Source of the DNA: Thermomonas sp. | GTDB taxonomy: Bacteria; Pseudomonadota; Gammaproteobacteria; Xanthomonadales; Xanthomonadaceae | Assembly (NCBI RefSeq): GCF_041919455.1 | Contig: NZ_JAYRTQ010000005.1 | Location: 33,079 to 97,078 of the forward strand | DNA: 64,000 nt | Direction of reading: 5' to 3' | In this document: one piece after another, positions 22,712-36,831 of the stretch | Layout of the letters: each line of letters begins with the position of its first letter | Position numbering within the stretch: position 1 is the first letter of the stretch | The notes under the pieces: generated by a model | The model's input: the letters and a program-made list of their open reading frames with translations, nothing else | Told to the model about the DNA's origin: nothing | The model's database searches: none | Program-made: the position numbers and the translations under genes

Positions 22712-23713
22712 TCAGTGGTCGCGGCTGACCGAGTAGTGCGCCAGCCCGCGCAGGGCGGCGACATGGTCGTTGTCACTCAAACCGGACAGTGCGGCTTCCG
22801 CGTCGCGTGCATACCGCAGCGCGCAGTCGCGGCTGTAGTCCAGGCTGCCGCAGGCGTGGATCGCGGCCATGACCTGCGGCAGCGCGCCGGTATCGCCCTG
22901 CTGGATCGCCGCGCGCAACACGGCTTGCGTTGCGGCGTCGCTGTGCTGCATCGCGTGGATGAGCGGCACGGTGGCCTTGCCTTCAGCCAGGTCGTCGCCC
23001 AGGTTCTTGCCCAGCGTTTCCGCGTCGGAGGCGTAGTCGAGCACGTCGTCGGCGATCTGGAAGGCGTAGCCCAGCGCCATGCCGTAGCGATGCATGGCAT
23101 CGCACGTCGCGGCATCGGCACCGGCCAACAACGCGCCCAGTCGCGTCGCAGCGGCGAACAGCACCGCGGTCTTGCGTTCGATCACCCGCAGGTAGGCGGC
23201 CTCATTGGTGTCGGGGTTGCGCACGTGCAGCAGTTGCAGCACCTCGCCCTCGGCGATGGTGTTGGTGGTGTTGGCCAGGAGTTGCTGCACGTCCATGCGT
23301 TCCAGTTCCACCATCAGCTGGAAGCTGCGCGAATACAGGAAGTCGCCGACCAGCACGCTGGCCGCATTGCCCCACACCGCATTCGCGGTCTTGCGGCCGC
23401 GGCGCAGGTCGGACTCGTCGACCACGTCGTCGTGCAGCAGGGTGGAGGTGTGGATGAACTCCACCACCGCCGCCAGCTGGTGGACGTCGGTACTGCGATG
23501 ACCGAGCGCGCCGGCCGTGAGCAGCAGCAGCATCGGCCGCAGCCGCTTGCCGCCGGCGCCGATGATGTACTCGGCCACCTGGTTGATCAGCACCACGTCC
23601 GAAGCCAGCCGCTGGCGGATCAACGCATCCATCGCCGCCATCTCCGGGGCGGCCAGGGCCTGGATCGCGGGCAGGGCGAGTCGACGTGGGGTTTGCGCGG
23701 CGGTGTCGTGCAT
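22712..23713 (-). CDS. ispB: octaprenyl-diphosphate synthase
   Basis: 333 aa from MHDTAAQ. FARM LLHDDVVD and SARM FQIADDVLD motifs. Confidence 0.85.
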   Translation of the reverse strand: MHDTAAQTPRRLALPAIQALAAPEMAAMDALIRQRLASDVVLINQVAEYIIGAGGKRLRPMLLLLTAGALGHRSTDVHQLAAVVEFIHTSTLLHDDVVDESDLRRGRKTANAVWGNAASVLVGDFLYSRSFQLMVELERMDVQQLLANTTNTIAEGEVLQLLHVRNPDTNEAAYLRVIERKTAVLFAAATRLGALLAGADAATCDAMHRYGMALGYAFQIADDVLDYASDAETLGKNLGDDLAEGKATVPLIHAMQHSDAATQAVLRAAIQQGDTGALPQVMAAIHACGSLDYSRDCALRYARDAEAALSGLSDNDHVAALRGLAHYSVSRDH

Positions 23714-23787
23714 GGGCGGTCGCTTCAGCGGATGCCGAATTATAAGCCGCAGCCGCCGTGGCCGGCCCCGGTCGCCGCGTGGCGGGC

Positions 23788-24900
23788 TTATCCCGGCAGC
23801 AGGGCGGCTTCCGAGGCGGTCTGCGACATGCGCTTCTGCACCTCGTCGCGCATCTGCGCCAGTTCGCCGCCGATCTGCTGGCGCTTGGCCATGCCCTCGC
23901 GATGGATCTCGCGCACTTCCTCGACGGTCTGGATCAGCTTGTCGTGGACGTGGCGCAGGGTCTCGATGTCGATCACCGAGCGCTGGTTGGCCTTGGCCGT
24001 GCCCACCGACGTGGCATGCACCAGGTCGGCGTTCTTGCGCATCAGTTCGTTGCTGGCATCGTCGATCGCGTTGGCCAGGTCGACCGCGTTGCGCTGGTCG
24101 GCCAGCGACAGCTGGATCGCGAACTGGTTTCGCCACATCGGGATGGTGATGTCGCGAACCGCGCTGAATTTCTCGATGAGCTGGATCGCGTTGGCCTGGA
24201 TCAGCCGGATCATCGGCAGGGTCTGGTCGGCGGCGTGCTGCAGCACCTGCAGGTCTGAGACGCGCTTGTCGAGCAGGCGCAGCGCGGTGTCCAGTTCGGC
24301 GCGCTGGATCCGGCTCTGCGGATCGTCCTGTCCGGCGAGTGCGGACAGGTCCTGCTGCAGTTCGGCGATGCGCACCCGGCCGGCGGCCACGTGGATACCC
24401 AGTGCGTGGCGTTCCTCAAGCACGATGCCGTGCATCTGGTCGTATTCGCGCACGCGCTGCTGCTGGGTGGCCTGGGTCTGGCCGACGTCGCGCATCAGCT
24501 GGTCGATCTGGCTGTTGGTCGAGCTGTACTTCTGCACCAGGTCGTCGCGCGTGGCCTTCAGCTTGTCGATCAGCGGGCCCAGGATCGGCAGCTTGGAGCG
24601 CTCGCCGAATGAGTCCAGGTTGAGGCTGCGCGCGATGCGCACCACTTCGCCGAGCTTCTCCCCGGAGTTGTCGAGGTCCGCATTGCGCACCTTGTCGAGC
24701 AACTGGGTGGAGAAGCTGCTGGTCTTGCCTGCCGCTTCGCGGCCGTAGCCATGCAGGTTGCCGGGCGTGATGTCCTGCAACGCCCGCGAGGTTTCCTGGA
24801 TCTTGCCGATGTCGGCGCTGGTCAGGCCCAGGTCGAGCAACGCTTTCTCGTCCAGCGCGGCCGGCAGCAGGGACGTGGATTCGGGGTTGTGCGTGGTCAT
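23788..24900 (-). CDS. telA: TelA (toxic anion resistance / YaaN) family protein
   Basis: 370 aa. ...MIRLIQANAIQLIEKF...IPMWRNQFAIQLSLA...VIDIETLRHVHDKLIQTVEEVREIHREGMAKRQQ aligns with B. subtilis YaaN/TelA (...QIRLIQNNDTLMSEKIQ...IPLWKSQMVLALGLE...IVDIETLVHTNNSLISTLDEVAKIQEEGRIKRRE). Confidence 0.8.
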   Translation of the reverse strand: MTTHNPESTSLLPAALDEKALLDLGLTSADIGKIQETSRALQDITPGNLHGYGREAAGKTSSFSTQLLDKVRNADLDNSGEKLGEVVRIARSLNLDSFGERSKLPILGPLIDKLKATRDDLVQKYSSTNSQIDQLMRDVGQTQATQQQRVREYDQMHGIVLEERHALGIHVAAGRVRIAELQQDLSALAGQDDPQSRIQRAELDTALRLLDKRVSDLQVLQHAADQTLPMIRLIQANAIQLIEKFSAVRDITIPMWRNQFAIQLSLADQRNAVDLANAIDDASNELMRKNADLVHATSVGTAKANQRSVIDIETLRHVHDKLIQTVEEVREIHREGMAKRQQIGGELAQMRDEVQKRMSQTASEAALLPG

Positions 24901-25586
24901 GGCGACTCCTGGGCGGCTGCGTGCGTTGGGGTTGCGGTTGGCGATTGCGTGAGGCCGGTGATGCCGGATTCGATCGATGCCACCAGCGTGGCGGCATCGC
25001 GCATCCGTGCTGCATCGTCCCGTCCTGCCAATGCAGCGCGATGCTGGACCAGCAGGCCTTCGACCTGCGGCAGCATGTGCTGATAACGGGCCGACAGTGC
25101 CTGCCCATTCTGCACCAGCACGCCGAGCTGGGTGGCAGTGAGCGTGCAGCCGAGGCGGCTGGATTCGAGCAGGCGCAGGCGCGTGTGATGGGTGGATGGA
25201 TCCGATGTGGTGGAAGCAAGGCCGGCGATGGCCGCATCGAATCCAGCGGCCAGCCCGGACAGGCGATCGCGCAACGAAGCAAGCGTGTGGTTGTGGCGTT
25301 CGAGTGCCTCGCCACGCTGGCGCGCCTGCAACACCAGCAGCGCGAGTTGCTCGCGCAGGGCGGTGGACTGCGCCTGCAGTTCGATGTCCCGGCCGAGCAG
25401 GCGGCCGAAGAAACCCACGCTTTTCCGCAAGGCACCCGCATCGGTCGACAACAGCACGGTGCGCAGGTCGCGCAGGGTCGCCTGGATGTCGTGCGCGGGC
25501 GACTGCAACGAAGCCGCCTCAGCCTGTGCGCGGCGCGCGGCATCGAGCAGGCTGGCGTCGTCGCGTGGAGTCTCCAGCGCGCTCAT
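24897..25586 (-). CDS. coiled-coil protein (229 aa) translationally coupled between giant ATPase and TelA (KlaA-like position?)
   Basis: ATGA overlaps at both ends. Heptad-rich. No recognisable domain. Confidence 0.55.
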   Translation of the reverse strand: MSALETPRDDASLLDAARRAQAEAASLQSPAHDIQATLRDLRTVLLSTDAGALRKSVGFFGRLLGRDIELQAQSTALREQLALLVLQARQRGEALERHNHTLASLRDRLSGLAAGFDAAIAGLASTTSDPSTHHTRLRLLESSRLGCTLTATQLGVLVQNGQALSARYQHMLPQVEGLLVQHRAALAGRDDAARMRDAATLVASIESGITGLTQSPTATPTHAAAQESP

Positions 25587-28500
25587 GACCCGTCGGTTTC
25601 GCCAGGCGGCTTCGCCCCGTCCGCTTTCCTCGCGTCCTCGGCCGCCTTGAACTTCAGCGCGCTGATGGTCCTCTCGAACGCACGTTCCTCTGGCGTGCGG
25701 ATGCGCGGCATGACCCGCTCAGCCGCATCGCGCGGCGCCGCGTTCGGCATGCCGCCGGCCTTCAGCGCCTCGACCAGTTCCAGCAGCGCCGAATGCAGGT
25801 GGTCCTGCCGCGCCAGGGTGCGCTCCAGGCCGTCGAGCAGCGGCTGGTGGGCGCTGCGCAGCAGGTCGCCGACGGGTGGCGCGGACGCTGCAACTGCGGC
25901 AGTGCTGGCCGTCGGCGTGGCGATGCGCGCCAGTGCGTCCAGCAACTCGCTCCAGGGCGGCGGTTGTGGTGAGACGGGCGCGGGTTCATCGCGCAGGCCC
26001 TGCAGGCCACCGGCGATGTCGGCCAGCTGCGCGACCATGCGCCCGCCGACATCGGCATCGTCCGCGCCCATCGCCTTGTTGCGCAGGAAGTCGGCCTTGA
26101 TCTGCGCCCAGCGCGCCTGCTGGTCCGGCGTCATCCGGTCAAGCAGTTCGCCGAGCTTGAGCAGGTTTTCCTCGGCACCTTGGGTGAGCAGTTGCGACTC
26201 GCCGAGGTAATGGTCGGCGATGACCTGGCGGAGCTCGGCATCGTTCATCACCGGCGAGATCTTTTCCGCCAGCTTGTTCATGTTGCGGTAGCTGCCCTGC
26301 AGCTTGAACGGTGGTTCCACGCGGTACTTGTCCGCCTGCGCGGCGCTGGCGATGTATTGCATGTTGACCTTGAACACCACTTCGCGGACCTGCAGCATCT
26401 TCTGCAGCACACCGACGATCTCGTTGATCTCGGCGCCGCTGTAGGCATGCGTCAGTGCATTGGTGGAGACCTCGCGGCCGCGCGCCTTGTCGACCAGCAG
26501 GTAGAGGTCGGCGAGATCGCGCGTGGCCAGCGGCGCGAGCACCGCATTGGAGGTAAGGCTGTTCTCGATGTAGCTGAGCAGGAACGTGTCTTCCATGCCG
26601 CCGAGCACGTCGCCCAAGTTGTAGATGTCGGCGCGGTTGGCCAGCATGTCCGGGATCTTGAAGGCCTCGCCGGACTCGGTGTACGGGTTGCCGGCCATCA
26701 CCACCGCGAACTTGCGTCCGCGCAGGTCGTAGGTGCGGGTGTTGCCGCGCCACACGCCTTCGATGCGACGGGTGCCGTCGCACAGCGAGATGAACTTCTG
26801 CAGGAATTCCGGATGGGTGTGCTGGATGTCGTCGACATACAGCATCACGTTGTTGCCCATCTCCAGCGCGAGATTCAACTTCTCCAATTCCTGGCGCGAG
26901 GTCGCGTCCGGCGCCTGCGCCGGGTCCAGTGAGCGCACCTGGTGGCCCAGCGACGGCCCGTTGATCTTCATGAAGACCAGGCCCAGCCGGTGCGCCACGT
27001 ATTCCATCAGCGTGGTCTTGCCGTAGCCGGGCGGGGAGATCAGCATCAGCAGGCCCATCAGGTCGCTGCGCTTGTCTTCCCCGACCGTGCCCATCTGCTT
27101 GGCGAGGTTGTCGCCGATCACGCGCAGGTAGACGTCGTTGATCAGCTTGTTGCGCACGAAGCTGGTCAGTGGCCGCGCCTTGAATTCCGACAGGCGCATC
27201 GTCTCGCGCTCGCGCTGCACGATGCGCGCGCGCACCTCCTGGTAGCGGCGGAATGCCGGGAGGAAGGTCGCCTGGTGCTGGCGCAGGCGCGATTGCAGGT
27301 CGTCGATGGCCAGGTGCAAGGTGCCGTCGACGATGCGCGCATGCTGCCCGAGCAGGCCGCTCGCATCCGCCATCAGGCGAACGTCAACGATGCGGTGCGG
27401 CAGCTTCGGGCCGTGCAGGTGCAGCGCCGCCGCTTCATGCGCGTAGGCGGCGAGGGCCGCATGTTCCGGACGTGCGACCAGTGCCTGCAGCCACTGCAGC
27501 AGCAACGACCATTGCGCGCCCGGACGATCCTGCAGGCGTTCCAGCGCCTGCTTGAACAAATCTTCGCTGCCGCTGGCGGCCAGTTGCACGCGCAGCGCAT
27601 CGAGCAGGTTCGCCGCGTAGCGCGTAAACGGCAGTTGGTCGGATTCCACGGTGATCGCGGCGATCAGGAACGTGGCGGCTTCGGCCTGGAGTCCATCTGC
27701 CAGTGGCAAGGCCTGTTCGGCGCGGAACTGTGCGACGGCGTCGGCGAGTTCATTCGCCAACGCGGTCGTCGCGGTCGCGTCCTGCAGGTGGCTGCGCACC
27801 GCCTTCGCATTGCGGATGCGTTCCAGCCAGCCGGTTTCAGGCGTGGCTTGGGCGTGCTGCCAGAACGCGGCGGCCAATGCGCGTGCATCGGCGGCATGCA
27901 CCAGCGGACCCGCCGGGCGATAGAGTGGCACCACCGCGCGCAGGATCAACGCGGCATCGTGGTCGTGGATGCCTTTCTCGTAGCCGTCACGATAGCGCGC
28001 GGAGGCGAATTCGCGCACGCGCGTCGCCAACGCGTCGGGATCGCCAACAAGGCGTTCCAGGGTGTCGATATCGAGGCCGTCACGGCCGGCCAGCGCGGCA
28101 TCGAGCAGTTGCCCGGCCAGGTATTCGCCGCGATACAGGTCCGGTGATTCGGATTCAAGCGTGACCTGCCAGAACGCACGCAACGCGGCGAGTTCCGGGT
28201 CGTGCAGCGGCGCCATGTAGTCGGTGCCGGTGAGGTGCACGGCCATGTCCTCGCCGCGCGGCAGCAGGGTCAGGTCGAGTGGCTGGGTGTTGACGCTGAA
28301 GCGGTGGCGCGGGCCCAGCTTGATGACGTTGCCGCCTTCCTCGAACAGGTCGCTGCGGTCGCGCAGCCCGCGCACGGCCTGGTCGCGCGCGGCCTTGATC
28401 CGCGATTCGATGTCGTCGGCCTTGACCGAGTCCTTCAGCGTGCGCAGGCGCTCGGCCAGCTCGCGCAGCTTCATCACCAGCGCATCGCCGGCAAAGAACG

Positions 28501-30922
28501 CATTGAGCTCGTCGGGATTGGTGAAGCGCTCGGTGCGTCGGCCAAGACCGTCGAAGATGCGATTGGCGGCATCGAGCACCGACCGCGCCTTGCGCTGGCG
28601 CTCGTCCATCAGCGCCTGGCGATGGGTCTCGAAGGTTTCCAGCAGTTCCTCGCGCTTGCCGAGGATGTCGCCGAGGAATTGTTCGTGCTCGCCGAACTGG
28701 CCCTCCAGTTCCTCCAGCTGCACCATCAGCCGCGAGAGCTGTTCGTCAGCGCGTTCCGGCGTGGTCGCCATGTCCAGCGCGCTGGCGACCGCCTGTGCGA
28801 ACAGCGAGAACTGCGCACCGAACTGCGCCACCGCCTCGGCGGAGCCCAGGGTCTTGCGCTTCTGCTCGGCGCGCGCGCGCGCCTGGTTCAACCTAGCGTA
28901 CAGGGCGGAGATCGCATCGACCACGCGGGTGCGCTGGGTGGCGTCGTCGACCTTCAGGCTGGCCATCAGCTCGGACAGGCGGTCGAGGTCGGCCGACATC
29001 GCCTGCATGCCGGCGAGTTGCTCGCCGAGCTGGGTGGCGGTCTGCGCTTTCTGCGCCTGTTCGTCCAGCGCCTGCAACGCCTGCTGCAGCGGCAGCAGGG
29101 CCTTGTCGCCGGCCAGGAAGTTGCCGGTCGCCACGCCCACGCGCTCGCTGGCCTGCTGCAGCTCGACACCCATCGCGTCGATCGCGGCGGTATCGATGTA
29201 GCGGTAATCGCGAATCGTCAGCAGGTGGCCGCGCTGCGCGGTGATCTCCGCCAGCGCATCGACGAAGGTCTGGATGCCGGTCCAGCCGTCGGGCTGCAGG
29301 CGACCGAGCAGGGCGCGCTGGGTCGCGCGCGCGCGGGTCATCGCAGCTTCCGACTGGCGCCGGACGTCCTGCACCTTGGCGAATTCGTCGAGCACCGATT
29401 CGCCGGTCGCGGCGATCTCATGGAGCAGGGTGGACAGGCCGCCGCATTGCGCGTCGTCGATCCAGTGGTGGATGTCGAACAGGCGCCGTGTGTTGTGCGC
29501 CAGCAGTTCGTAGCGCGCGGCGGAGACATCCTCGCGCTCGATGTCGCGGCCGAGGTCGAGCAGGTTGGACACTGCGCGCACCAGTTCGGCATTGCCGATC
29601 CGGCCCATGAAGCTGGTGCCCGGCGGACGGGCCGCCACGTATTCGTCGGAGGCGAACGGGGTCTGCCAGACCTGCATCTGGTGGACGCGGGTCGGGTCGT
29701 CGCTCTCGGCGTGGAAGAGCACCATGCGGCCGTCGTGCAGGCGTGCGTAACCGTGCGCGAGCACCGGCGGCTGCAGCCGGCGCTGGATCATGTTGTAGAC
29801 CAGCAGCGCGGACAGGCCGGAGTCGCGCTCGTAGAACACATAGAGCACGTCCTCGCCGTTCGGCGAGCGGATCATCCGCTTGTACTGCATGCCCTGCACG
29901 GCGGCGTCGAAGGCCTTGTGCTCGCCGTTCTGCAGGTAATAGCCGCCGGGAAAAATGATGCCGTGGTCTTCCGGCAACTGGATGCAGGCCTGGACGATCG
30001 CGTCCTGGCGCACCGCCTTGCCGGTCAATGTGTTGTAGACCAGCCCGCGCCAGGTGGTCTCGCGGTAGGGCAGCACCTTCAGCAGGATCAGCGCACCGAC
30101 CCTGGCGAAATGGATCTGCGCATCGTCGAGCGATTGCGTTTCGTCCTCGACCGATTCGCTGTAGATGCCGGCGCCGGTCTCGGTGTTGTTCTCGACCTTG
30201 AGGGTGAGGTCGCCGCCGGTGGTCTCGACGAACAGGGTGTCGAGGATGTTGAGGTGCGGGAAGCGCCCGCTGACTTCCAGCGACTTGGTGGCGCGGATCC
30301 ATTCGAAGTCGAACGGTGGCGGCAGCGCGATGTCGCGTTCGCCGCGCGCGTCGATGTAGCCGACCTCCCCGCTGCTGGCGATCGACCAGCGGAACACGCG
30401 CACGTCGTTCGCGTTGAGGCCGATCTGGAACGCGGCCAGCAGCTTGCCGTCGCGCACGATCAGCTGCAGCAGCCGCGCGTCCTTGTAGTACGCATAGAGT
30501 TCGGTGAAGTCGCGGATGAAGCCGGCATCGCCGAGGAAGCTGCCCGCGTGGTCGACCGGGGTGACGTCGTAGCCATCGCCGACCTCGACCAGGCGGTACA
30601 GGCCGAACACGTCGGACACGCTGGTAGTCGACTTCAGGCCCATGAAGACGTTGAAGCCGAACAGCAGCATGTCGCCGACCTGGACGATGTCGCGGCCCAC
30701 GCAGTTGTGCTCGCTGCGGATGCGCAAGCGGCCGACCAGCTCCATCTTGCTGTCGCCGAATTCCTGCAGGCGCTGCGCATTGATGCCTTGCGCGATCGCC
30801 TGCAGTTTCTGGCCCTGCTCGCCCAGCCGGCGCCGCAGCACTTCGTACGCGCCGCCCTGCGCGACCGCCTGGTCGACCAGCGAGTCGCCGCCCGTCGCCT
30901 GCTTGTCCGTGCCGTCCGTCAT
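25583..30922 (-). CDS. giant (1,779 aa) multidomain protein with embedded MoxR/dynein-class AAA+ ATPase module
   Basis: Walker A LISPPGYGKTTLMEY encoded at ~27.02-27.04 kb. Walker B VMLYVDDIQH. Sensor-1/Arg-finger region AVVMAGNPYTESGEAFKIPDMLANRADIYNL parallels MoxR 'ATQNP...PLPEAQLDRF'. Long coiled-coil middle region. P/A-rich C-terminus. Confidence 0.75.
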   Translation of the reverse strand: MTDGTDKQATGGDSLVDQAVAQGGAYEVLRRRLGEQGQKLQAIAQGINAQRLQEFGDSKMELVGRLRIRSEHNCVGRDIVQVGDMLLFGFNVFMGLKSTTSVSDVFGLYRLVEVGDGYDVTPVDHAGSFLGDAGFIRDFTELYAYYKDARLLQLIVRDGKLLAAFQIGLNANDVRVFRWSIASSGEVGYIDARGERDIALPPPFDFEWIRATKSLEVSGRFPHLNILDTLFVETTGGDLTLKVENNTETGAGIYSESVEDETQSLDDAQIHFARVGALILLKVLPYRETTWRGLVYNTLTGKAVRQDAIVQACIQLPEDHGIIFPGGYYLQNGEHKAFDAAVQGMQYKRMIRSPNGEDVLYVFYERDSGLSALLVYNMIQRRLQPPVLAHGYARLHDGRMVLFHAESDDPTRVHQMQVWQTPFASDEYVAARPPGTSFMGRIGNAELVRAVSNLLDLGRDIEREDVSAARYELLAHNTRRLFDIHHWIDDAQCGGLSTLLHEIAATGESVLDEFAKVQDVRRQSEAAMTRARATQRALLGRLQPDGWTGIQTFVDALAEITAQRGHLLTIRDYRYIDTAAIDAMGVELQQASERVGVATGNFLAGDKALLPLQQALQALDEQAQKAQTATQLGEQLAGMQAMSADLDRLSELMASLKVDDATQRTRVVDAISALYARLNQARARAEQKRKTLGSAEAVAQFGAQFSLFAQAVASALDMATTPERADEQLSRLMVQLEELEGQFGEHEQFLGDILGKREELLETFETHRQALMDERQRKARSVLDAANRIFDGLGRRTERFTNPDELNAFFAGDALVMKLRELAERLRTLKDSVKADDIESRIKAARDQAVRGLRDRSDLFEEGGNVIKLGPRHRFSVNTQPLDLTLLPRGEDMAVHLTGTDYMAPLHDPELAALRAFWQVTLESESPDLYRGEYLAGQLLDAALAGRDGLDIDTLERLVGDPDALATRVREFASARYRDGYEKGIHDHDAALILRAVVPLYRPAGPLVHAADARALAAAFWQHAQATPETGWLERIRNAKAVRSHLQDATATTALANELADAVAQFRAEQALPLADGLQAEAATFLIAAITVESDQLPFTRYAANLLDALRVQLAASGSEDLFKQALERLQDRPGAQWSLLLQWLQALVARPEHAALAAYAHEAAALHLHGPKLPHRIVDVRLMADASGLLGQHARIVDGTLHLAIDDLQSRLRQHQATFLPAFRRYQEVRARIVQRERETMRLSEFKARPLTSFVRNKLINDVYLRVIGDNLAKQMGTVGEDKRSDLMGLLMLISPPGYGKTTLMEYVAHRLGLVFMKINGPSLGHQVRSLDPAQAPDATSRQELEKLNLALEMGNNVMLYVDDIQHTHPEFLQKFISLCDGTRRIEGVWRGNTRTYDLRGRKFAVVMAGNPYTESGEAFKIPDMLANRADIYNLGDVLGGMEDTFLLSYIENSLTSNAVLAPLATRDLADLYLLVDKARGREVSTNALTHAYSGAEINEIVGVLQKMLQVREVVFKVNMQYIASAAQADKYRVEPPFKLQGSYRNMNKLAEKISPVMNDAELRQVIADHYLGESQLLTQGAEENLLKLGELLDRMTPDQQARWAQIKADFLRNKAMGADDADVGGRMVAQLADIAGGLQGLRDEPAPVSPQPPPWSELLDALARIATPTASTAAVAASAPPVGDLLRSAHQPLLDGLERTLARQDHLHSALLELVEALKAGGMPNAAPRDAAERVMPRIRTPEERAFERTISALKFKAAEDARKADGAKPPGETDGS

Positions 30923-30998
30923 CCCTGCATCCTTTCCATGGCGTCGTGTGCCAGCGCTTCAATGCGGGCAATCGCGCCAATGCATGCCCGCAACCGCG

Positions 30999-33002
30999 TC
31001 ACGCGTTGTCTGCGTCGTTGGCCAGCGCCGGACGCAGTTCCACCCCGGCGACCTTGGACAGCAACTGCTGCAGGATGGGGCTGTGCTGCGCCAGGCCCTC
31101 CATCGCCTTGCCCAGCGACACGCCCTTGGTCAGCGCATCGAACACGCCGCCGTCGCCGCCGATCAGTTCGATGTTGGCACCGCGCAGCGCTTCGCCCAGT
31201 ACCTCGGCATTCTCCTTCGACACCTGGCGGCCGGCCTCGATCGATGCCAGTGCCTGCTTCAGCCCGGTCTCCAGCGCCATCCGGAATTCCTCGTGGCTGC
31301 GCGACTCGAGGCTCATCTTGTCCATCGCGTCGAACTTGGACGTCAGGCCCTCGGCTTCCGCGGCCATGCGCTTGCCGATCGAGGTCGCCTCTGCATCGCC
31401 CATCGCCTGCGTGGCATCGGCCTGGGCGCGGCCCATCTGCGCCTTGTTCTCCGCCTCGGCACGGCCCATCTGCGCCTTGCCGTCCGCTTCCGCGGCCAGC
31501 CGTTCGGCCAGCACCTTGGCGTCCGCGCTGCCCTGCTTGTAGTTGGCCTGCGCCTTGGCCTCGATCACCCGCGCCTCGGCCACGCCGACCTTCTCCACCG
31601 CCGCCGCATTCGCTTCGCGCACCTGCGCGTCCGCCAGGCCAGGCGCGGCGCGTTCGGCGCGCACGCCATCGGCCAGCATCTTCTTGGCTTCGGCCTGCTT
31701 GTTGGCGGCCAGCAATTCGGCATCGGCCAGCGTGGTCATCTCGACCGCGCGGTGCTTCGCCGCGGTTTCCGCCGCCTCGGCGGCCTTCACTTCCTTGACC
31801 AGGACTTCCTGCGCGTCGGCTTCCGCCTGCAGGATGGTGACCTGCTTGGCGCGGTCGGCCTCCGCCACCTCGCGGGTTTCCTTGATCTTCTCCTGGGCGA
31901 TGGCGACGGTCTGGTCGATGACCGTGCGCTCGCGGACGATGTTGGCGACCTCCATGCGGCCGTTCTCGACCGCCTTGTCGCGCTCGACGCCCTGCAACTG
32001 CACTTCGCGATCGGTGGTGACCTTCTCCAGTTGCTTGGCGCGCTCGACGCGCTCCTGCTCGATGGTCACCGCGCGCTGGCGGTTCTGCTCGGCCACTTCG
32101 ACCTGGCGCAGCTGTTCCTGCTCGCGGATCTTGATCAGTTCGTCGGACTGCAGGCGTGCGTTCTCGGAGATCAATCGCTGCTCTTCGCGCACGCGCGCGG
32201 TCTCGGCTTCCTCGCGGGCCTGCACGGATTCGATCTCACGCTTCTGGCGGGCTTCCGCCTCGGCCTGCTGACGCTCGAGCGCGAGCAGCGCTTCACGGGC
32301 GCTGACGTTCTTCTGGGTGATCTGCAGCTTCTCGTCCTGCTCCAGTTCGTTGGTCTTGACGTTCTGCAGCGCGGTCAGTTCGGTGATCTTGCGGATGCCT
32401 TCGGCATCCAGGATGTTGTTGTGATCGAGCAGGTTCTTGGGCGTCTGCTCGAGGTAGTCGATGGCCACGTCCTCCAGCACGTAGCCATTGAGGTCGTTGC
32501 CGATGACCTTGACGATCTCGTCGCGGAATTCCTGGCGCTTCTCGAACAGGTCGGTGAACTCGAACTTCTTGCCGACCGTCTTCAGCGCCTCGGAGAACTT
32601 GGCGTTGAACAGTTCATCCACCGCGTTCTTGTCGGAGGCGCGGTCCGCGCCGATCGCCTTGGCCACGCGCAGCACGTCGGCCTGGGTTTCGTTGACGCGC
32701 AGGTAGAACGCCACGGTGATGTCGGCGCGCATGTTGTCCTTGCAGATCAGGCCTTCCTTGCCGCGGCGATCCACCTGCAGGGTGATCAGGCTGATCTTCA
32801 TCAATTCGGCGCGGTAGAGGACCGGCACGATCAGCGCACCGGTGAAGTGCACCTTCGGCTGCGAGCTCATGTCGTTGACGATCAGGGCGGTGCCCTGGTC
32901 GACCTTCTTGTAGAAAGCCTTGAACAGGCCCATCAGGCCGAAAATGAACACCAGCAGGACGCCGAGGCCGACGAGGAAGGGTGCGATTTGAGCGAAGGTC
33001 AT
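30999..33002 (-). CDS. yqiK: flotillin-family SPFH protein (YqiK-like)
   Basis: 667 aa. N-terminal TM, SPFH/band-7 domain, then very long Ala/Glu-rich coiled coil. Confidence 0.85.
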   Translation of the reverse strand: MTFAQIAPFLVGLGVLLVFIFGLMGLFKAFYKKVDQGTALIVNDMSSQPKVHFTGALIVPVLYRAELMKISLITLQVDRRGKEGLICKDNMRADITVAFYLRVNETQADVLRVAKAIGADRASDKNAVDELFNAKFSEALKTVGKKFEFTDLFEKRQEFRDEIVKVIGNDLNGYVLEDVAIDYLEQTPKNLLDHNNILDAEGIRKITELTALQNVKTNELEQDEKLQITQKNVSAREALLALERQQAEAEARQKREIESVQAREEAETARVREEQRLISENARLQSDELIKIREQEQLRQVEVAEQNRQRAVTIEQERVERAKQLEKVTTDREVQLQGVERDKAVENGRMEVANIVRERTVIDQTVAIAQEKIKETREVAEADRAKQVTILQAEADAQEVLVKEVKAAEAAETAAKHRAVEMTTLADAELLAANKQAEAKKMLADGVRAERAAPGLADAQVREANAAAVEKVGVAEARVIEAKAQANYKQGSADAKVLAERLAAEADGKAQMGRAEAENKAQMGRAQADATQAMGDAEATSIGKRMAAEAEGLTSKFDAMDKMSLESRSHEEFRMALETGLKQALASIEAGRQVSKENAEVLGEALRGANIELIGGDGGVFDALTKGVSLGKAMEGLAQHSPILQQLLSKVAGVELRPALANDADNA

Positions 33003-33032
33003 GGAAAGCTCCAGTGGCGTGCTTGATGGTGC

Positions 33033-33674
33033 CTAGTGCGCGTTGAACTGCGATTCGGAAATGACGAGATAGGTATTGGCGTTGGCGTCGTGCTCCAGCA
33101 GGACCACGCGGTCGCCGCGGACGAAGCGTTCCGGCGGCACAACCCGCACTTGCAGGATCAGGCCGGCACCGCCATCGGCGAATTCGGCGCGGCCTTGGTT
33201 GGCGTCGACCTCGGGCGATATCACCGTGCCGGCGCGGCCGAGGAGGCTGGGCGCGACCGGCGGACGCAGCTTGACCAGCAGCTTGCGCACCGGCCGCAGC
33301 AACAGCGAGGTGACGAACACGCCGGGCACCAGGGCGCCGACCAGGGTGGCGATGCCGCCGAGCAGGCGCAGCGGCGCCGGCAGGTGTTGCAGCACCAGCA
33401 GGTGCACGAAGTACGTGGCCATCCAGCCGAAGAACGACAGCACGGTGAGCACGATCATGATCGGCACGCCGCCCAGCCCGAGGCGGGCCAGCAGGCCGGC
33501 GCTGTCGGTGGCATGGTGGCTGTCGCCGCCGCCATCGCCACTCAACAGGCCGTCGATCGCGTCGATGTCGACCAGTCCCGTTGCGGCCAGCAACCAGTAG
33601 ACGACGCAGAACGCCAGCAGGATGCTGTAGGGCAGCGTGGGGAAGGTCAGCGCGGTGTGCAGGAATTCGGTCAT
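33033..33674 (-). CDS. yqiJ: NfeD-like membrane protein (YqiJ-like partner of flotillin)
   Basis: 213 aa. Multi-TM N-terminal half plus C-terminal OB-fold-like beta region. Immediately upstream of the flotillin gene, as in E. coli yqiJK. Confidence 0.7.
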   Translation of the reverse strand: MTEFLHTALTFPTLPYSILLAFCVVYWLLAATGLVDIDAIDGLLSGDGGGDSHHATDSAGLLARLGLGGVPIMIVLTVLSFFGWMATYFVHLLVLQHLPAPLRLLGGIATLVGALVPGVFVTSLLLRPVRKLLVKLRPPVAPSLLGRAGTVISPEVDANQGRAEFADGGAGLILQVRVVPPERFVRGDRVVLLEHDANANTYLVISESQFNAH

Positions 33675-33686
33675 GCGGCGTCCGGG

Positions 33687-34364
33687 TCAGCGCTTGGCGG
33701 TCGAGGGCGAAGGGGCTTTCGGCTTGATGCGTCTGGCGATGCGTTCCAGGACCTGGTCGGCCGCATCGCCCGCCGCCTCCTTCGGGGAAACGGGCGTGGC
33801 ACGGGAATCCGGCCCGCCCGTGGCCTTGCGCTGGCGTGCGCGTTGCGCCGGTGCCAGCGCCGGTTCCGGATGCGCGGTCTCCGTGGATCGGCGCCGCGCC
33901 ACGCTGGCCTGCGCCTGTTGCAGGCTGGCGCTTGCGCGCAGCGTATCGACCTGGTGTTTCAAACGGCGCAGCTGGTGTTCGCCCTGTTCGAGCACGTGCG
34001 CCAGTTCGGTTTCCCTGGCCTGCAGGGATTCCGCACGCTCGCGCTCCTCGTCCCGGTGGGACTGCAACGCCACGATCCGCTCCGCGGCCTCGCGCGCCTG
34101 GGTGCGCTTGCGCGTGTGCAGCGCCTGCTCGGCCTCTGCGGTGAGCGCGGCGATGCGCGTGCGCAGGTCCTGCTCGTGTTGCTCGCCGACGATGCGGGCG
34201 GCCTTGGTACTGGCGATGTCGGCGCGCACCCGATGCAGGGTGTCATCGAGGTCGCGGATGTCCTGGTCCAGCTGGCGCTCGACCTTGTCGCCGAACAGCG
34301 CATCGGAGACGCCGGCGACGTCCTCGCCCAGCCTCGCCAGCCATTGTCCGAGCAGGCCCGACAT
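33687..34364 (-). CDS. PspA/IM30 (phage-shock protein A / YjfJ-like) family protein
   Basis: ~226 aa from MSGLLGQWLARLGEDVAGVSDALFGDKVERQLDQDIRDLDDTLHRV... Pattern of PspA N-terminal helix then coiled coil. Start overlaps stop of upstream gene (TGATG). Confidence 0.8.
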   Translation of the reverse strand: MSGLLGQWLARLGEDVAGVSDALFGDKVERQLDQDIRDLDDTLHRVRADIASTKAARIVGEQHEQDLRTRIAALTAEAEQALHTRKRTQAREAAERIVALQSHRDEERERAESLQARETELAHVLEQGEHQLRRLKHQVDTLRASASLQQAQASVARRRSTETAHPEPALAPAQRARQRKATGGPDSRATPVSPKEAAGDAADQVLERIARRIKPKAPSPSTAKR

Positions 34365-34990
34365 CACGCCGCCGATTCCGCGGGCAGCAGGTAGCCGGCG
34401 AAGGCGTCGGTGGCGCCCAGCACGTTTTCCGCCAGGGTCTCGATTTCGAACATCAGGCTGGCCAGCCGCGAATGCGCGTCGAGCGCGCCGAACATGATGT
34501 AGCCGGGGACGCCGGCGACGGCCTGCACGGCAATGGTGGAGAGCGGCAGCAGCTTCTGCGTGCGCAGCACGTGCAGGTTGAACAGGGCGGGGTCGGCGAC
34601 CATCGCCACCGGCCACAGGTAGGCCTCGACGATGATCTGCCCGCCGACTGCGGCGACGAACAGCGACAGGTCGCCATGTTCGCGGAGGACCAGGTGCAGG
34701 CTCGGCTCCGCGCCCTCGATGGTCTCGATGCCGATCAGCCCGTCGCGGACCGCGCTGGTCTCGCCCAGTGCATGGCGGATCGTGGCGATGGTCCAGCCGG
34801 CCTCGGCGTGCATGGGTGCTGCCGAGTCGCGCTCGGGGTCGCGCATGGACTTTTCGATGGCGGCCAGCTCCGCTGCGTACTCGGGGCGGATCCACACGTC
34901 CTTCTTGACCAGGCCTTGCTCGCGCAGCCGCTCCCGATACCTGCGCTGGTGCTCGGTGGAGGTCTTCGGGGTGGCTTGACCATCTTTCAT
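34364..34990 (-). CDS. fusion protein: RHH-like N-terminal segment + YjfI/DUF2170-like domain, first gene of operon
   Basis: Probable start MKDGQATPKTSTEHQRRYRERLREQGLVKKDVWIRPEYAAELAAIEK (RHH-like). C-terminal ~130 aa resembles E. coli YjfI, which precedes the PspA paralog yjfJ. ORF table starts at a TTG (35026) inside the palindrome. Confidence 0.5.
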   Translation of the reverse strand: MKDGQATPKTSTEHQRRYRERLREQGLVKKDVWIRPEYAAELAAIEKSMRDPERDSAAPMHAEAGWTIATIRHALGETSAVRDGLIGIETIEGAEPSLHLVLREHGDLSLFVAAVGGQIIVEAYLWPVAMVADPALFNLHVLRTQKLLPLSTIAVQAVAGVPGYIMFGALDAHSRLASLMFEIETLAENVLGATDAFAGYLLPAESAA

Positions 34991-35020
34991 GTAATTGAAT
35001 CTATTTCTTACATGAAAGAT
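34982..35020. promoter_or_regulatory. AT-rich perfect inverted repeat operator/promoter at head of the PspA-flotillin-TelA operon
   Basis: ATCTTTCATGTAA-N13-TTACATGAAAGAT: 13-bp perfect arms with 13-bp AT-rich spacer. Left arm contains the ATG of the first gene. Lowest-GC stretch in the locus. Lies between this operon and divergent ssb. Confidence 0.5.
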
Positions 35021-35186
35021 CGTCAAGCGGTTTCTGGCGAGGATCCCGCCAGCTCCGTCGTGGAGGCCTGCCGGGTGTGCGTGGATTTCCTACCTAGTCC
35101 CACGGCGCCGCCCGACTGCGCCGGGGCCGGCCGCTATACTCCACTGTCAGTCGTCCGATCCGGACGAAACCGAGTCGAGGAAGAAC

Positions 35187-35714
35187 ATGGCACGCGGCGT
35201 GAACAAGGTGATCCTGGTCGGCAACCTGGGCAACGACCCCGAGGTGAAGTACACGCAGGGCGGCATGGCGATCACCAAGGTCAGCCTGGCCACCAGTTCG
35301 GTCCGCAAGGACAAGGACGGCAACCAGCAGGAAAAGACAGAGTGGCATCGGGTGACCTTCTTCGGCAAGCTCGGCGAGATCGCCGGCGAGTACCTGAAGA
35401 AGGGCTCGCAGGTCTACGTCGAAGGACGGATCACCTACAGCGAGACGACCGGCGACGACGGCCAGAAGCGCTACTTCACCGACATCGTGGCAGACGAGAT
35501 GCAGATGCTCGGCGGCCGTGAAGGCGGTGCCGCGGGTGGTGGCGGTGGCGCGCCGCGCGAAGGCGGCTTCCAGCGCAGTGGCGGGGGAGGCGGCGGCAGC
35601 TACGGCAGCGGCGGCGATCGCCAGCAGCGCGCACCGGCCCAGCGTCGCGATCCCGCGCCGGCCAAGCCGGCCAACTTCGACGACGTGCCGTTCGACGACG
35701 ACATCCCGTTCTGA
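35187..35714 (+). CDS. ssb: single-stranded DNA-binding protein
   Basis: OB-fold N-terminus [19 protein letters not shown]..., Gly-rich linker, acidic tip DDDIPF. Confidence 0.9.
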
Positions 35715-35772
35715 TGTGCCGCGGCCTGCCTGGCGGGCCTCCTCATCGCCCAACGCAGGGAAGCTGACAAGC

Positions 35773-36831
35773 ATGACGACGTGGCTCGTGACCGGCGGCG
35801 CCGGTTTCATCGGCGGCAATTTCGTATTGGCTGCCGTGCGCGATGGCATCAAGGTGGTGAACCTGGATGCGCTGACGTATGCGGGCAACCGCGACACCCT
35901 GGCCTCGCTGGACGGCGACGACAATCACGTCTTCGTGCATGGCGACATCGGTGACCGTGCCCTGGTCGCACGGCTGCTGGCCGAATATCGCCCCGACGCG
36001 GTGGTGAATTTCGCCGCGGAAAGCCATGTCGATCGTTCCATCGATGGCCCGGCGGCATTCATCCAGACCAACGTGGTCGGCACCCTGGCCTTGCTGGAAG
36101 CCGTGCGCGACCACTGGAAATCGCTGGAAGGCGAGGCGAAGGGGGCATTCCGCTTCCTGCATGTGTCCACCGACGAGGTCTATGGCTCGCTAGGCGAAAC
36201 CGGCGCCTTCAGCGAGACCACGCCGTACGCGCCCAATTCGCCGTACTCCGCGTCGAAGGCCGCGTCCGATCATCTGGTCCGCGCCTTCCATCACACCTAC
36301 GGCCTACCCACGCTCACCACCAACTGCAGCAACAATTACGGGCCGTACCACTTCCCGGAGAAGCTCATCCCGCTGGTGATCGCCAAGGCGCTGGCCGGCG
36401 AACCGTTGCCCGTCTATGGCGACGGCAAGCAGGTGCGCGACTGGCTGTTCGTCGCCGACCACTGCCGGGCGATCCGCACAGTGCTGGCGAACGGTCGGGT
36501 GGGTGAGACCTACAACGTCGGCGGCAATGCCGAGAAGCAGAACATCGAGGTCGTGCACGCGATCTGCGCGCTGCTCGACCAGCGCCGCCCGCGCGAGGAC
36601 GGACAGCCGCGCGCATCGCAGGTGACGTACGTCGCCGATCGCCCGGGCCACGACCGCCGCTACGCGATCGATGCCTCGAAACTGCGCGGCGAGCTGGGTT
36701 GGGCGCCGGAATACACCTTCGAGCGCGGCATCGCCGAAACCGTGGACTGGTATCTCGCCCACCAGGACTGGGTCCGGCGCGTGCTCGACGGCTCGTATCG
36801 GCTGGAACGCATCGGGCGAGGCGGCGCGTGA
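35773..36831 (+). CDS. rmlB: dTDP-glucose 4,6-dehydratase
   Basis: [17 protein letters not shown]..., YxxxK SDR-extended motifs. Confidence 0.9.

Follow-up and report, generated by a model that had tools for sequence, protein, structure and literature searches.

What do seven tightly packed genes for PspA-, NfeD-, flotillin- and TelA-type proteins do around one giant ATPase? The genes lie in the window, by which we mean the whole 64,000-nucleotide (nt) stretch of Thermomonas sp. DNA that was analysed (contig NZ_JAYRTQ010000005.1). An earlier note on this DNA had seen in them a candidate membrane-remodelling and envelope-stress system whose combined architecture was uncharacterised. We found that the cluster is a Lysobacteraceae variant of the described bac, or CesT-PspA-flotillin-YqiJ-AAA+, envelope-stress operon, with an extra TelA pair. 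As a whole, it is best explained as an autorepressed bac-type operon with an SPFH/NfeD plus AAA+ core and a TelA tail, a reading to which we give a probability of about 0.6.

We checked the open reading frames (ORFs) of the window at 23788-34990 and recovered seven genes, all on the minus strand, numbered here from g1 (first) to g7 (last):

34364..34990, minus strand: g1, BacA/YjfI-like protein, 208 amino acids (aa); Pfam DUF2170, E 2e-40
33687..34364, minus strand: g2, PspA/IM30-family protein (YjfJ/BacB-like), 225 aa; start overlaps the g1 stop
33033..33674, minus strand: g3, YqiJ-type "short NfeD" membrane protein (BacC-like), 213 aa
30999..33002, minus strand: g4, YqiK-type flotillin/SPFH membrane protein (BacD/PaFlo3-like), 667 aa
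25583..30922, minus strand: g5, giant AAA+ protein (BacE/PA3728-like), 1,779 aa
24897..25586, minus strand: g6, short divergent TelA-like protein, 229 aa; ATGA overlap with g5
23788..24900, minus strand: g7, canonical TelA, 370 aa; ATGA overlap with g6

The short gaps and overlaps described earlier were confirmed (g1/g2, -1 nt; g2-g3, 12; g3-g4, 30; g4-g5, 76; g5/g6, -4; g6/g7, -4), with ATGA-type stop/start codons at all three overlapping junctions. The cluster had been given the extent 23788-35026; its seven genes stand, but g1 most likely starts at the ATG at 34990, and the TTG at 35026 belongs to a -35 box. A consensus scan of 23400-35400 yielded a single sigma70-like promoter, immediately 5' of g1. 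Terminator-like sites in the same interval were no commoner than in shuffled sequence, and the gene junctions were free of them. From the short or overlapping junctions, the single promoter-like site and the lack of a terminator excess, together with published reverse-transcription PCR (RT-PCR) in Pseudomonas aeruginosa, we predict that the cluster is transcribed as one operon.

A variant of a described operon class

Ravi et al. (2024) described an operon class that unites CesT/Tir (YjfI)-PspA, a band-7/flotillin protein, YqiJ/YuaF, a novel AAA+ protein and sometimes a phospholipase D (PLD) hydrolase; they noted an abbreviated form, made up of flotillin, YqiJ and AAA+, widely in bacteria and archaea, and proposed ESCRT-like analogies (PMC11237479). 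Each of g1-g5 fits this class, and we also met the abbreviated form and the optional PLD gene among related loci. The DUF2170 gene is followed directly, with a 1-nt overlap, by the PspA_IM30 gene (49.7 bits; cutoff 33.9). YqiJ- and YqiK-type proteins are both present, and Pfam models miss both: g3 has no Pfam match and only a marginal direct BLASTP match to E. coli YqiJ (E 0.043), but its family profile aligned with YqiJ by hhalign (94.5%, E 8e-8, 145 columns); g4 matches neither Pfam nor PDB sequences, but BLASTP aligned it with E. coli YqiK at 28% identity over 453 aa including the SPFH part (E 5e-39). The large AAA+ protein, which in this class has an N-terminal beta-propeller/coiled-coil region, carries DUF3686 at its N terminus (E 4e-191), AAA matches and conserved Walker motifs. 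The PspA, YqiJ/NfeD, flotillin, giant AAA+ and TelA labels assigned earlier were thus matched by Pfam, BLASTP and hhalign. The main text of Ravi et al. contains no TelA (0 occurrences), and the g6-g7 tail, the N-terminal domain of YjfI and the operator boxes reported below are undescribed in the text searched (PMC11237479).

The experimental counterpart is the bacABCDEF operon of P. aeruginosa (PA3732-PA3727 or PA14_16140-16200; Mace 2008, PMC2587700; Wallart 2024, PMC10948618; PMC13086221). BacA (DUF2170), BacB (PspA), BacC (short NfeD) and BacD (flotillin) come in the same order and orientation as g1-g4, and the ATPase BacE, PA3728, would be the counterpart of g5. It is in P. aeruginosa that co-transcription, derepression and stress induction have been reported. 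All six bac genes were linked by RT-PCR across their junctions (PMC10948618), and BacB-F over-accumulate 6- to 13-fold in a bacA mutant. The PspA-like PA3731 accumulates on osmotic shock, and its mutant is defective in biofilm formation, swarming, rhamnolipid production and virulence (PMC2587700); bac orthologs were induced in all phage-infected samples (PMC12041424). BacD is PaFlo3, whose partner is a "short NfeD" (PMC13086221). With osmotic-shock and phage induction of these orthologs (PMC2587700, PMC12041424), the idea of a conserved membrane- and envelope-stress cluster holds. The earlier reading was therefore right in its membrane-stress theme, wrong on novelty and, as shown below, probably wrong on the main partner of the ATPase. 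The seven-gene form, with its short and long TelA proteins, is a version of a published system particular to one lineage, and makes no new category. What the class offers is a tie between three poorly understood membrane-organising families (PspA/ESCRT-III, flotillin/NfeD and TelA) and a very large unstudied ATPase, in an operon that in P. aeruginosa has effects on biofilm, swarming and virulence.

E. coli K-12 has homologs of g1-g4 at separate loci, as had been stated: yjfIJ, in a spermidine-related yjfKLMC context, and yqiJK lie 1.2 Mb apart, and the giant ATPase is absent. g1 is 34% identical to YjfI (E 4e-24), and g2 matches YjfJ weakly (25% identity, E 0.001). Similar to the classical PspF-PspABC system, the cluster combines a PspA-family effector with envelope-stress induction and negative feedback through a protein partner; it differs in having no PspF, PspB, PspC or conserved sigma54 promoter, and its repression is predicted to occur by direct DNA binding of a different protein.

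The flotillin-YqiJ-ATPase core

We followed the cluster through 81 loci, namely 80 loci from a genome scan with the giant gene plus a metagenome contig (L002) that is 99% identical to the window and has the same gene layout. Six-frame ORFs were searched with profiles, and neighbour genes were counted within ±10 kb of the giant. The scanned loci span Lysobacteraceae, Pseudomonas, Enterobacterales, Burkholderiales, Myxococcota, Actinobacteria, Acidobacteriota, Planctomycetota and others. Among named organisms, Thermomonas and Pseudoxanthomonas are the closest relatives. g4 was found at 79/81 loci, directly 5' of g5, and g3 at 74/81, directly 5' of g4, in both cases on the same strand. g3-g4-g5 is the invariant core of the operon class in several phyla. 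The arrangement is far beyond chance: dozens of genomes show this gene order on one strand.

g1 (40/81) and g2 (41/81) were confined to proteobacterial-named records, with divergent orientation in three, and we found no conserved upstream partner replacing them in loci that lack both. All seven genes occurred together at six of the 81 loci (Pseudoxanthomonas, Solilutibacter, Thermomonas, one Lysobacter metagenome-assembled genome (MAG) and the near-identical contig); Stenotrophomonas and Luteimonas kept g3-g7 and lacked g1-g2. The giant ATPase thus tracks flotillin/NfeD and not PspA, because g3 and g4 occur at 74-79 of the 81 loci versus about 41 for PspA, which was found in none of the non-proteobacterial phyla. 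This evolutionary partnership with flotillin/NfeD redirects interaction and structural work on the ATPase.

Promoter and predicted operator upstream of g1

The region 5' of g1 holds the following elements:

34998..35026, minus strand: sigma70-like promoter; -35 TTGACG at 35026-35021, 17-nt spacer, -10 TAGATT at 35003-34998
34974-34994 and 35008-35028, no strand: arms of a 21-nt inverted repeat, 95% complementary; predicted operator
35008-35017: operator box TTTCATGTAA, between -35 and -10
34985-34994: operator box TTACATGAAA, covering the g1 start codon

In the window, the -10 hexamer ends 7 nt 5' of the g1 ATG. The same geometry recurred in 28 loci, with a spacer of 16-18 nt and a -10 end that in most cases precedes the ATG by 6-7 nt (6-9 overall), and 27 of these 28 had no Shine-Dalgarno-like sequence. 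Since the -10 box lies 6-7 nt from the ATG and a Shine-Dalgarno sequence is missing, we predict a leaderless mRNA for the operon, starting at or next to the g1 ATG.

The inverted repeat (34974-35028) encloses both the promoter TTGACG-17-TAGATT and the ATG at 34990. Its two boxes, TTTCATGTAA and TTACATGAAA, lie 23 bp apart centre to centre, and each is one mismatch away from TTACATGTAA. What relatives conserve is a 10-bp palindrome, T[TC]ACATGT[AG]A, mostly in two copies about 22-24 bp apart centre to centre. One palindrome core sits at -25/-26 from the ATG, between -35 and -10, in 27/28 loci; the second sits at -47 to -50 or, in Thermomonas-type loci including the window, over the ATG instead. 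We counted exact boxes within 150 nt of the g1 start across the 81 loci. They were present at 24/29 loci whose g1 has the N-terminal domain described below (N-domain), the remaining five, of the window's type, carrying one-mismatch versions. None occurred at the 11 loci with a DUF2170-only g1 or at the 41 without g1 (0/52 together), and elsewhere in the 1.81 Mb of loci sequence there were two boxes only.

We considered a sigma54 promoter for the operon and rejected it, finding no conserved GG-N10-GC site 5' of g1 across 27 upstream regions of relatives; the best matches reached 9/12 at variable positions, and six regions had none at all. The window has a weak sigma54-like match, TGGCGGGATCCTCGCC, at -61, with no counterpart conserved across relatives. 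An RNA-hairpin reading of the 21-nt inverted repeat was also rejected, because its left arm lies 5' of the -10 box and would be untranscribed from the conserved promoter, and because relatives conserve two separate 10-bp palindromes, not a stem. A further palindrome, CTGGCG-GGATCCT-CGCCAG at 35034-35052, lies just 5' of the -35 box in the divergent region between ssb and g1; it overlaps TGGCGGGATCCTCGCC and is not conserved in relatives.

g1 as a predicted autorepressor

g1 consists of two domains:

34835-34966, minus strand: basic N-domain, residues ~9-52, followed by a variable linker
34388-34795, minus strand: DUF2170 CesT-like domain, residues 66-201

Against PDB entry 8q8o (P. aeruginosa PA14_16140, BacA), g1 gave a sequence E of 6e-33, and in a fold search the same entry ranked top (TM 0.92-0.95; 48% identity over the C-domain), followed by YbjN/AmyR and type III secretion system (T3SS) chaperones. 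The NCBIfam BacA model NF050185 scored 246.3 bits over positions 4-202/206, under its 300-bit equivalog cutoff; g1 is thus a full-length BacA homolog outside the Pseudomonas equivalog threshold.

The N-domain spans about 45 residues with the consensus SSAHYQRxxRQRLREQGLVKKEVWILPE...LxxxExxLR, in which R19, R23, G26, K29, K30, W33, E46 and R50 are invariant. An AlphaFold2 model placed a helix at 11-24, an extended segment at 25-35 and a second helix at 36-50. Of the "RHH-YjfI fusion" proposed earlier, the conserved N-terminal extension and the DUF2170/YjfI part stand, but the helix-strand-helix order is not the strand-helix-helix of ribbon-helix-helix (RHH) proteins, and Pfam gave no RHH match for the N-domain. 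We observed repeated sub-threshold matches to the MazE-like antitoxin family PF11455 (E 0.004-0.04) and to NCBIfam UrfF, "plasmid repression protein". The isolated N-domain matched positions 1-48 of the NCBIfam BacA model (E 1e-19 to 1e-25) and is therefore present in Pseudomonas BacA. E. coli YjfI, at 133 aa, has no N-domain.

The crystallised P. aeruginosa BacA is a dimer whose chains, of 139-146 aa, consist of the DUF2170 domain alone, and the P. aeruginosa BacA paper does not mention DNA binding by BacA. P. aeruginosa BacA is annotated as a 16-kDa protein of 139-146 aa, versus 206 positions in the NCBIfam model. Seven Pseudomonas loci (L010, L011, L014, L017, L019, L025 and L058) have an in-frame N-domain of ~55 aa, with boxes 5' of the start. 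The short P. aeruginosa annotation probably begins at an internal Met, which suggests that the crystallised and annotated protein is without its predicted DNA-binding part.

We predict that g1 directly autorepresses the operon through the palindromic boxes, because N-domain and boxes co-occur; this also fits the 6- to 13-fold rise of BacB-F in the bacA mutant. Such a link between N-domain and operator would account for the derepression that bacA mutants are reported to show. As far as the literature searched shows, the combined proposal of operator, N-domain and leaderless promoter would be new. The published P. aeruginosa model, in contrast, has a sigma54 promoter and a chaperone-type regulator without DNA binding. 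Boxes and promoter geometry like those of the window are present in related Pseudomonas loci. At loci whose g1 has no N-domain, g1-g2 and g3-g5 may form separate transcription units, as their layout suggests. By ORF coordinates, the g2-g3 gap looks larger, ~250-380 nt, in eight DUF2170-only loci (L039, L046, L051, L052, L054, L061, L064 and L081), and g1-g2 are divergent, with a g1 without N-domain, in L050, L053 and L077.

The giant AAA+ protein

g5 is composed as follows:

29465-30805, minus strand: DUF3686, residues 40-486 (Pfam, E 4e-191, as above)
28853-29104, minus strand: DUF7902, residues 607-690 (Pfam)
26603-27076, minus strand: AAA+ core, residues ~1283-1440; Pfam AAA_5/AAA at ~1292-1415

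A helical middle and a C-terminal helical tail make up further parts. The MoxR type that had been proposed for g5 is a candidate assignment: AAA_5 matched residues 1292-1415 with 26.5 bits (cutoff 22), and PF00004 similarly with 26.4 bits. The motifs are Walker A SPPGYGKTT (1296-1304), Walker B DD (1364-1365), sensor-1 N1412 and R1430, and we found SPPGYGKTT, DD(IQH), N1412 and R1430 invariant across 29 homologs, down to 30% identity. The family is large, with 5,191 matches; at E<=1e-30 it falls into 442 clusters of 50% identity. A single-sequence search of PDB with g5 returned no match; a profile of the 29 giants reached NVL, Rix7, p97 and RuvB, at the level of the P-loop only. Pfam revealed neither an MIT domain nor a Vps4-like architecture in g5, and Pfam and NCBIfam scans no nuclease, helicase or DNA-binding domain. 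In the literature searched, "DUF3686" is unmentioned and the PA3728 giant appears in gene lists only.

The TelA-type tail

g7 matched Pfam TelA PF05816 with 239.6 bits (cutoff 30) over profile positions 13-331/332. g6, described earlier as a 229-aa coiled-coil protein, turned out to be a divergent TelA paralog. It has no Pfam TelA match itself, but 4/20 members of its family do (best E 4e-6). The LLPxWRQ region of g6 also aligned with the TelA motif by hhalign, weakly (11%; shallow alignments), so that the TelA assignment is based on the per-member Pfam scans, not on hhalign. The g6 family is narrow, with 47 matches, one UniRef cluster among them being named "toxic anion resistance protein".

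g6 and g7 occurred at 14/81 loci, in Lysobacteraceae only, and the pair stood directly after the giant in 14/14; wherever context was examined (these 14 loci), the g6 homolog lay between giant and TelA. The ATGA overlaps suggest that g6 is coupled translationally to g5, and g7 to g6. That TelA proteins can be recruited to this machine as a coupled pair is a hint at their site of action. In other lineages, the giant is followed by a rhomboid-like protein (GASGW motif) and/or a PLD/HKD protein (HMHHKF...NGSFNWT), at loci that include Pseudomonas, Enterobacterales and others, and TelA thus does not hold up as an integral part of the system. Related Pseudomonas loci have rhomboid-like and PLD/HKD genes after the giant, versus g6-TelA here, and one of these genes is presumably P. 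aeruginosa bacF. Rhomboid-like genes (GASGW, HxxxN) and/or PLD/HKD genes were seen 3' of the giant in L010, L011, L017, L020, L021, L024, L025, L029, L058, L063 and L065. A Lysobacter MAG (L006:15915-17837) has g6, TelA and a PLD/HKD gene in series; tail modules can therefore combine.

Proposed mechanism and alternative explanations

The best-supported picture has three layers: an SPFH/NfeD plus AAA+ core, a proteobacterial PspA/CesT add-on that supplies the regulator, and a TelA-like tail. In our proposal, a single sigma70-type promoter would drive a leaderless transcript from at or next to the g1 ATG. g1 would act as a two-domain autorepressor, in which a CesT-like DUF2170 dimer brings the small basic N-domains to a pair of TTACATGTAA-type palindromes. 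Because this pair overlaps the -35/-10 elements and the start site, bound g1 would block RNA polymerase. Upon envelope stress, a partner (the best candidates being the PspA-like g2 and an unassembled client) would engage the CesT-like domain and relieve repression, a partner switching as in PspA-PspF or ExsC-ExsD. We infer DNA binding and partner switching by g1 from the gene identities, conservation, promoter and operator geometry and N-domain co-occurrence set out above. g2 would then polymerise on the damaged inner membrane, as is known for PspA/ESCRT-III proteins, and g3 and g4 would build an SPFH microdomain or cage, as family knowledge and their co-occurrence suggest. g5 would dock through its N-terminal DUF3686 and coiled-coil region, and its single AAA+ module would assemble, disassemble or extract components of the SPFH/NfeD scaffold, possibly acting secondarily on the PspA polymer. 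g6-g7 would serve as a lineage-specific membrane-associated accessory in the slot that a rhomboid protease or PLD-type phospholipase takes elsewhere.

Several observations weigh against this proposal. Gene linkage is the single basis on which a candidate substrate is assigned to g5, and AlphaFold2 modelled the AAA+/C-terminal 630 aa of g5 (16 close homologs) poorly, with a predicted local distance difference test (pLDDT) score of 54.6; a Foldseek search of PDB with this poor model returned generic AAA+ proteins (Lon/Clp/RuvB; NorQ at rank 15), all at E > 1e-3. The Walker B motif is hhhhDD (LYVDDIQH, nt 26826-26831), not DE, in 29/29 homologs, and ATP hydrolysis may accordingly be slow, or regulated or regulatory. 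For g1, the AlphaFold2 monomer has low confidence at residues 25-35, the N-domain matched none of the DNA-binding families above threshold, and the loci with N-domain and box share descent, so their co-occurrence does not amount to independent events. The P. aeruginosa bac authors proposed a sigma54 promoter (PMC10948618, PMC2587700), and deletion of paFlo3 (bacD) had a mild effect, with ~20% biofilm reduction (PMC13086221).

The earlier note had favoured an ESCRT-III/Vps4-like analogy, in which the giant would be a motor dedicated to taking the PspA-like polymer apart, with flotillin/NfeD as platform only. PspA/Vipp1 do belong to the ESCRT-III superfamily (PMC10948618, PMC11237479), Ravi et al. 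raised the same analogy (PMC11237479), g2 and g5 stand in one operon in the window and at ~40 related loci, as in ESCRT-III/Vps4 systems (CdvB/CdvC) where a polymer protein of this superfamily is encoded beside an AAA+ ATPase, and the AAA+ motifs of g5 are intact. However, about half of the giant loci have no PspA gene within the ±10 kb counted, and nearly all of them retain flotillin and YqiJ; the PspA-less set includes all Actinobacteria, Myxococcota, Acidobacteriota, Planctomycetota and Stenotrophomonas loci and several from Enterobacterales, and g1-g2 are oriented divergently in three loci. Vps4 and CdvC combine an N-terminal MIT domain with a single classical AAA cassette in ~400-450 aa, whereas g5 has 1,779 aa, a DUF3686 N terminus and neither MIT domain nor Vps4-like architecture. 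With its linkage facultative to PspA and near-obligate to flotillin, a PspA-dedicated g5 seems unlikely to us. We regard as improbable, too, that g6-g7 are a separate toxic-anion or membrane-stress module hitch-hiking on the transcript of a five-gene system. Their restriction to 14 Lysobacteraceae loci, the fluid tail position (rhomboid, PLD, TelA or nothing) and their retention without g1-g2 in Stenotrophomonas and Luteimonas would suit such a 5 + 2 arrangement, but the invariable place of the pair immediately after the giant, the ATGA overlaps in the window and a narrow g6 family found in the same position in every examined context argue for co-evolution with the giant.

TelA and Ter genes have been linked to phage and colicin resistance, a point in favour of an anti-phage defence or abortive-infection system built on the large ATPase. 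Phage induction of the P. aeruginosa orthologs in all infected samples (PMC12041424) points the same way, yet it is also typical of ordinary Psp responses. PADLOC defence models returned coiled-coil noise only and no meaningful match, GC is uniform, the neighbours are housekeeping genes, and the locus is conserved vertically across families and is not island-like, all of which makes a defence role very improbable. We give practically no credence to a DNA-repair ATPase with unrelated neighbours, the case that the earlier note had set against its own reading. It would draw on the phrase "ATPase involved in DNA repair" in NCBI/UniRef names and in the text of the Pfam entry for DUF3686, the divergent ssb upstream in the window and weak RuvB P-loop matches of g5. 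However, DUF3686 covers the N-terminal non-ATPase region, and "DNA repair ATPase" is a database name taken over from the Pfam description, behind which we found no evidence. The RuvB likeness is confined to ~40 residues around Walker A and is common to p97/NVL, g5 has none of the nuclease, helicase or DNA-binding domains sought, ssb was beside the giant in 0/81 related loci, the conserved neighbours are all membrane proteins, and the literature searched gives no repair link for PA3728 or DUF3686.

A more specific, joint version of the autorepressed-operon reading is one that we hold tentatively and with some doubt. In it, YjfI/BacA would be a novel type of one-polypeptide partner-switching repressor, whose MazE-like N-domain reads TTACATGTAA palindromes on a leaderless sigma70 promoter and whose T3SS-chaperone-like domain senses how far PspA or flotillin clients are assembled; the DUF3686 giant would be a dedicated AAA+ remodeller of flotillin/NfeD cages, and the short and long TelA proteins lineage-specific adaptors. 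Were this version true, the sigma54 model of the bac operon would be overturned, and bacterial flotillins would have their first dedicated motor.

Genomic setting

Upstream of g1, the window holds two genes in divergent orientation to the cluster:

35187-35714, plus strand: ssb, 175 aa, divergent upstream neighbour of g1
35518-36831, plus strand: dTDP-glucose 4,6-dehydratase-like ORF, upstream neighbour

Both are housekeeping genes without a conserved link to the operon. GC is ~0.66-0.69 across the window with no compositional break at the cluster, and G+C at third codon positions (GC3) is 0.77-0.91 for each of the seven genes. An Rfam search of 23000-36000 gave no match. In the near-identical metagenome contig (L002:2013-4198), the flotillin gene runs as two overlapping frames, and the source mis-called it, in part as an ORF on the opposite strand; the split is likely an assembly frameshift.

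The g4-g5 gap (30923-30998), at 76 nt the longest intergenic stretch of the cluster, holds a 7-bp GC-rich hairpin (GCGGGCA...TGCCCGC) with a 14-nt loop and no T-run, which could act in processing or attenuation or mark a regulatory site inside the operon. Downstream, telA (g7) is followed by ispB after a 75-nt gap (23713-23787). We saw no terminator between the telA stop and ispB, and a perfect TATAAT lies ~27 nt 5' of the ispB ATG; ispB probably has its own promoter, and read-through from the operon could also occur.

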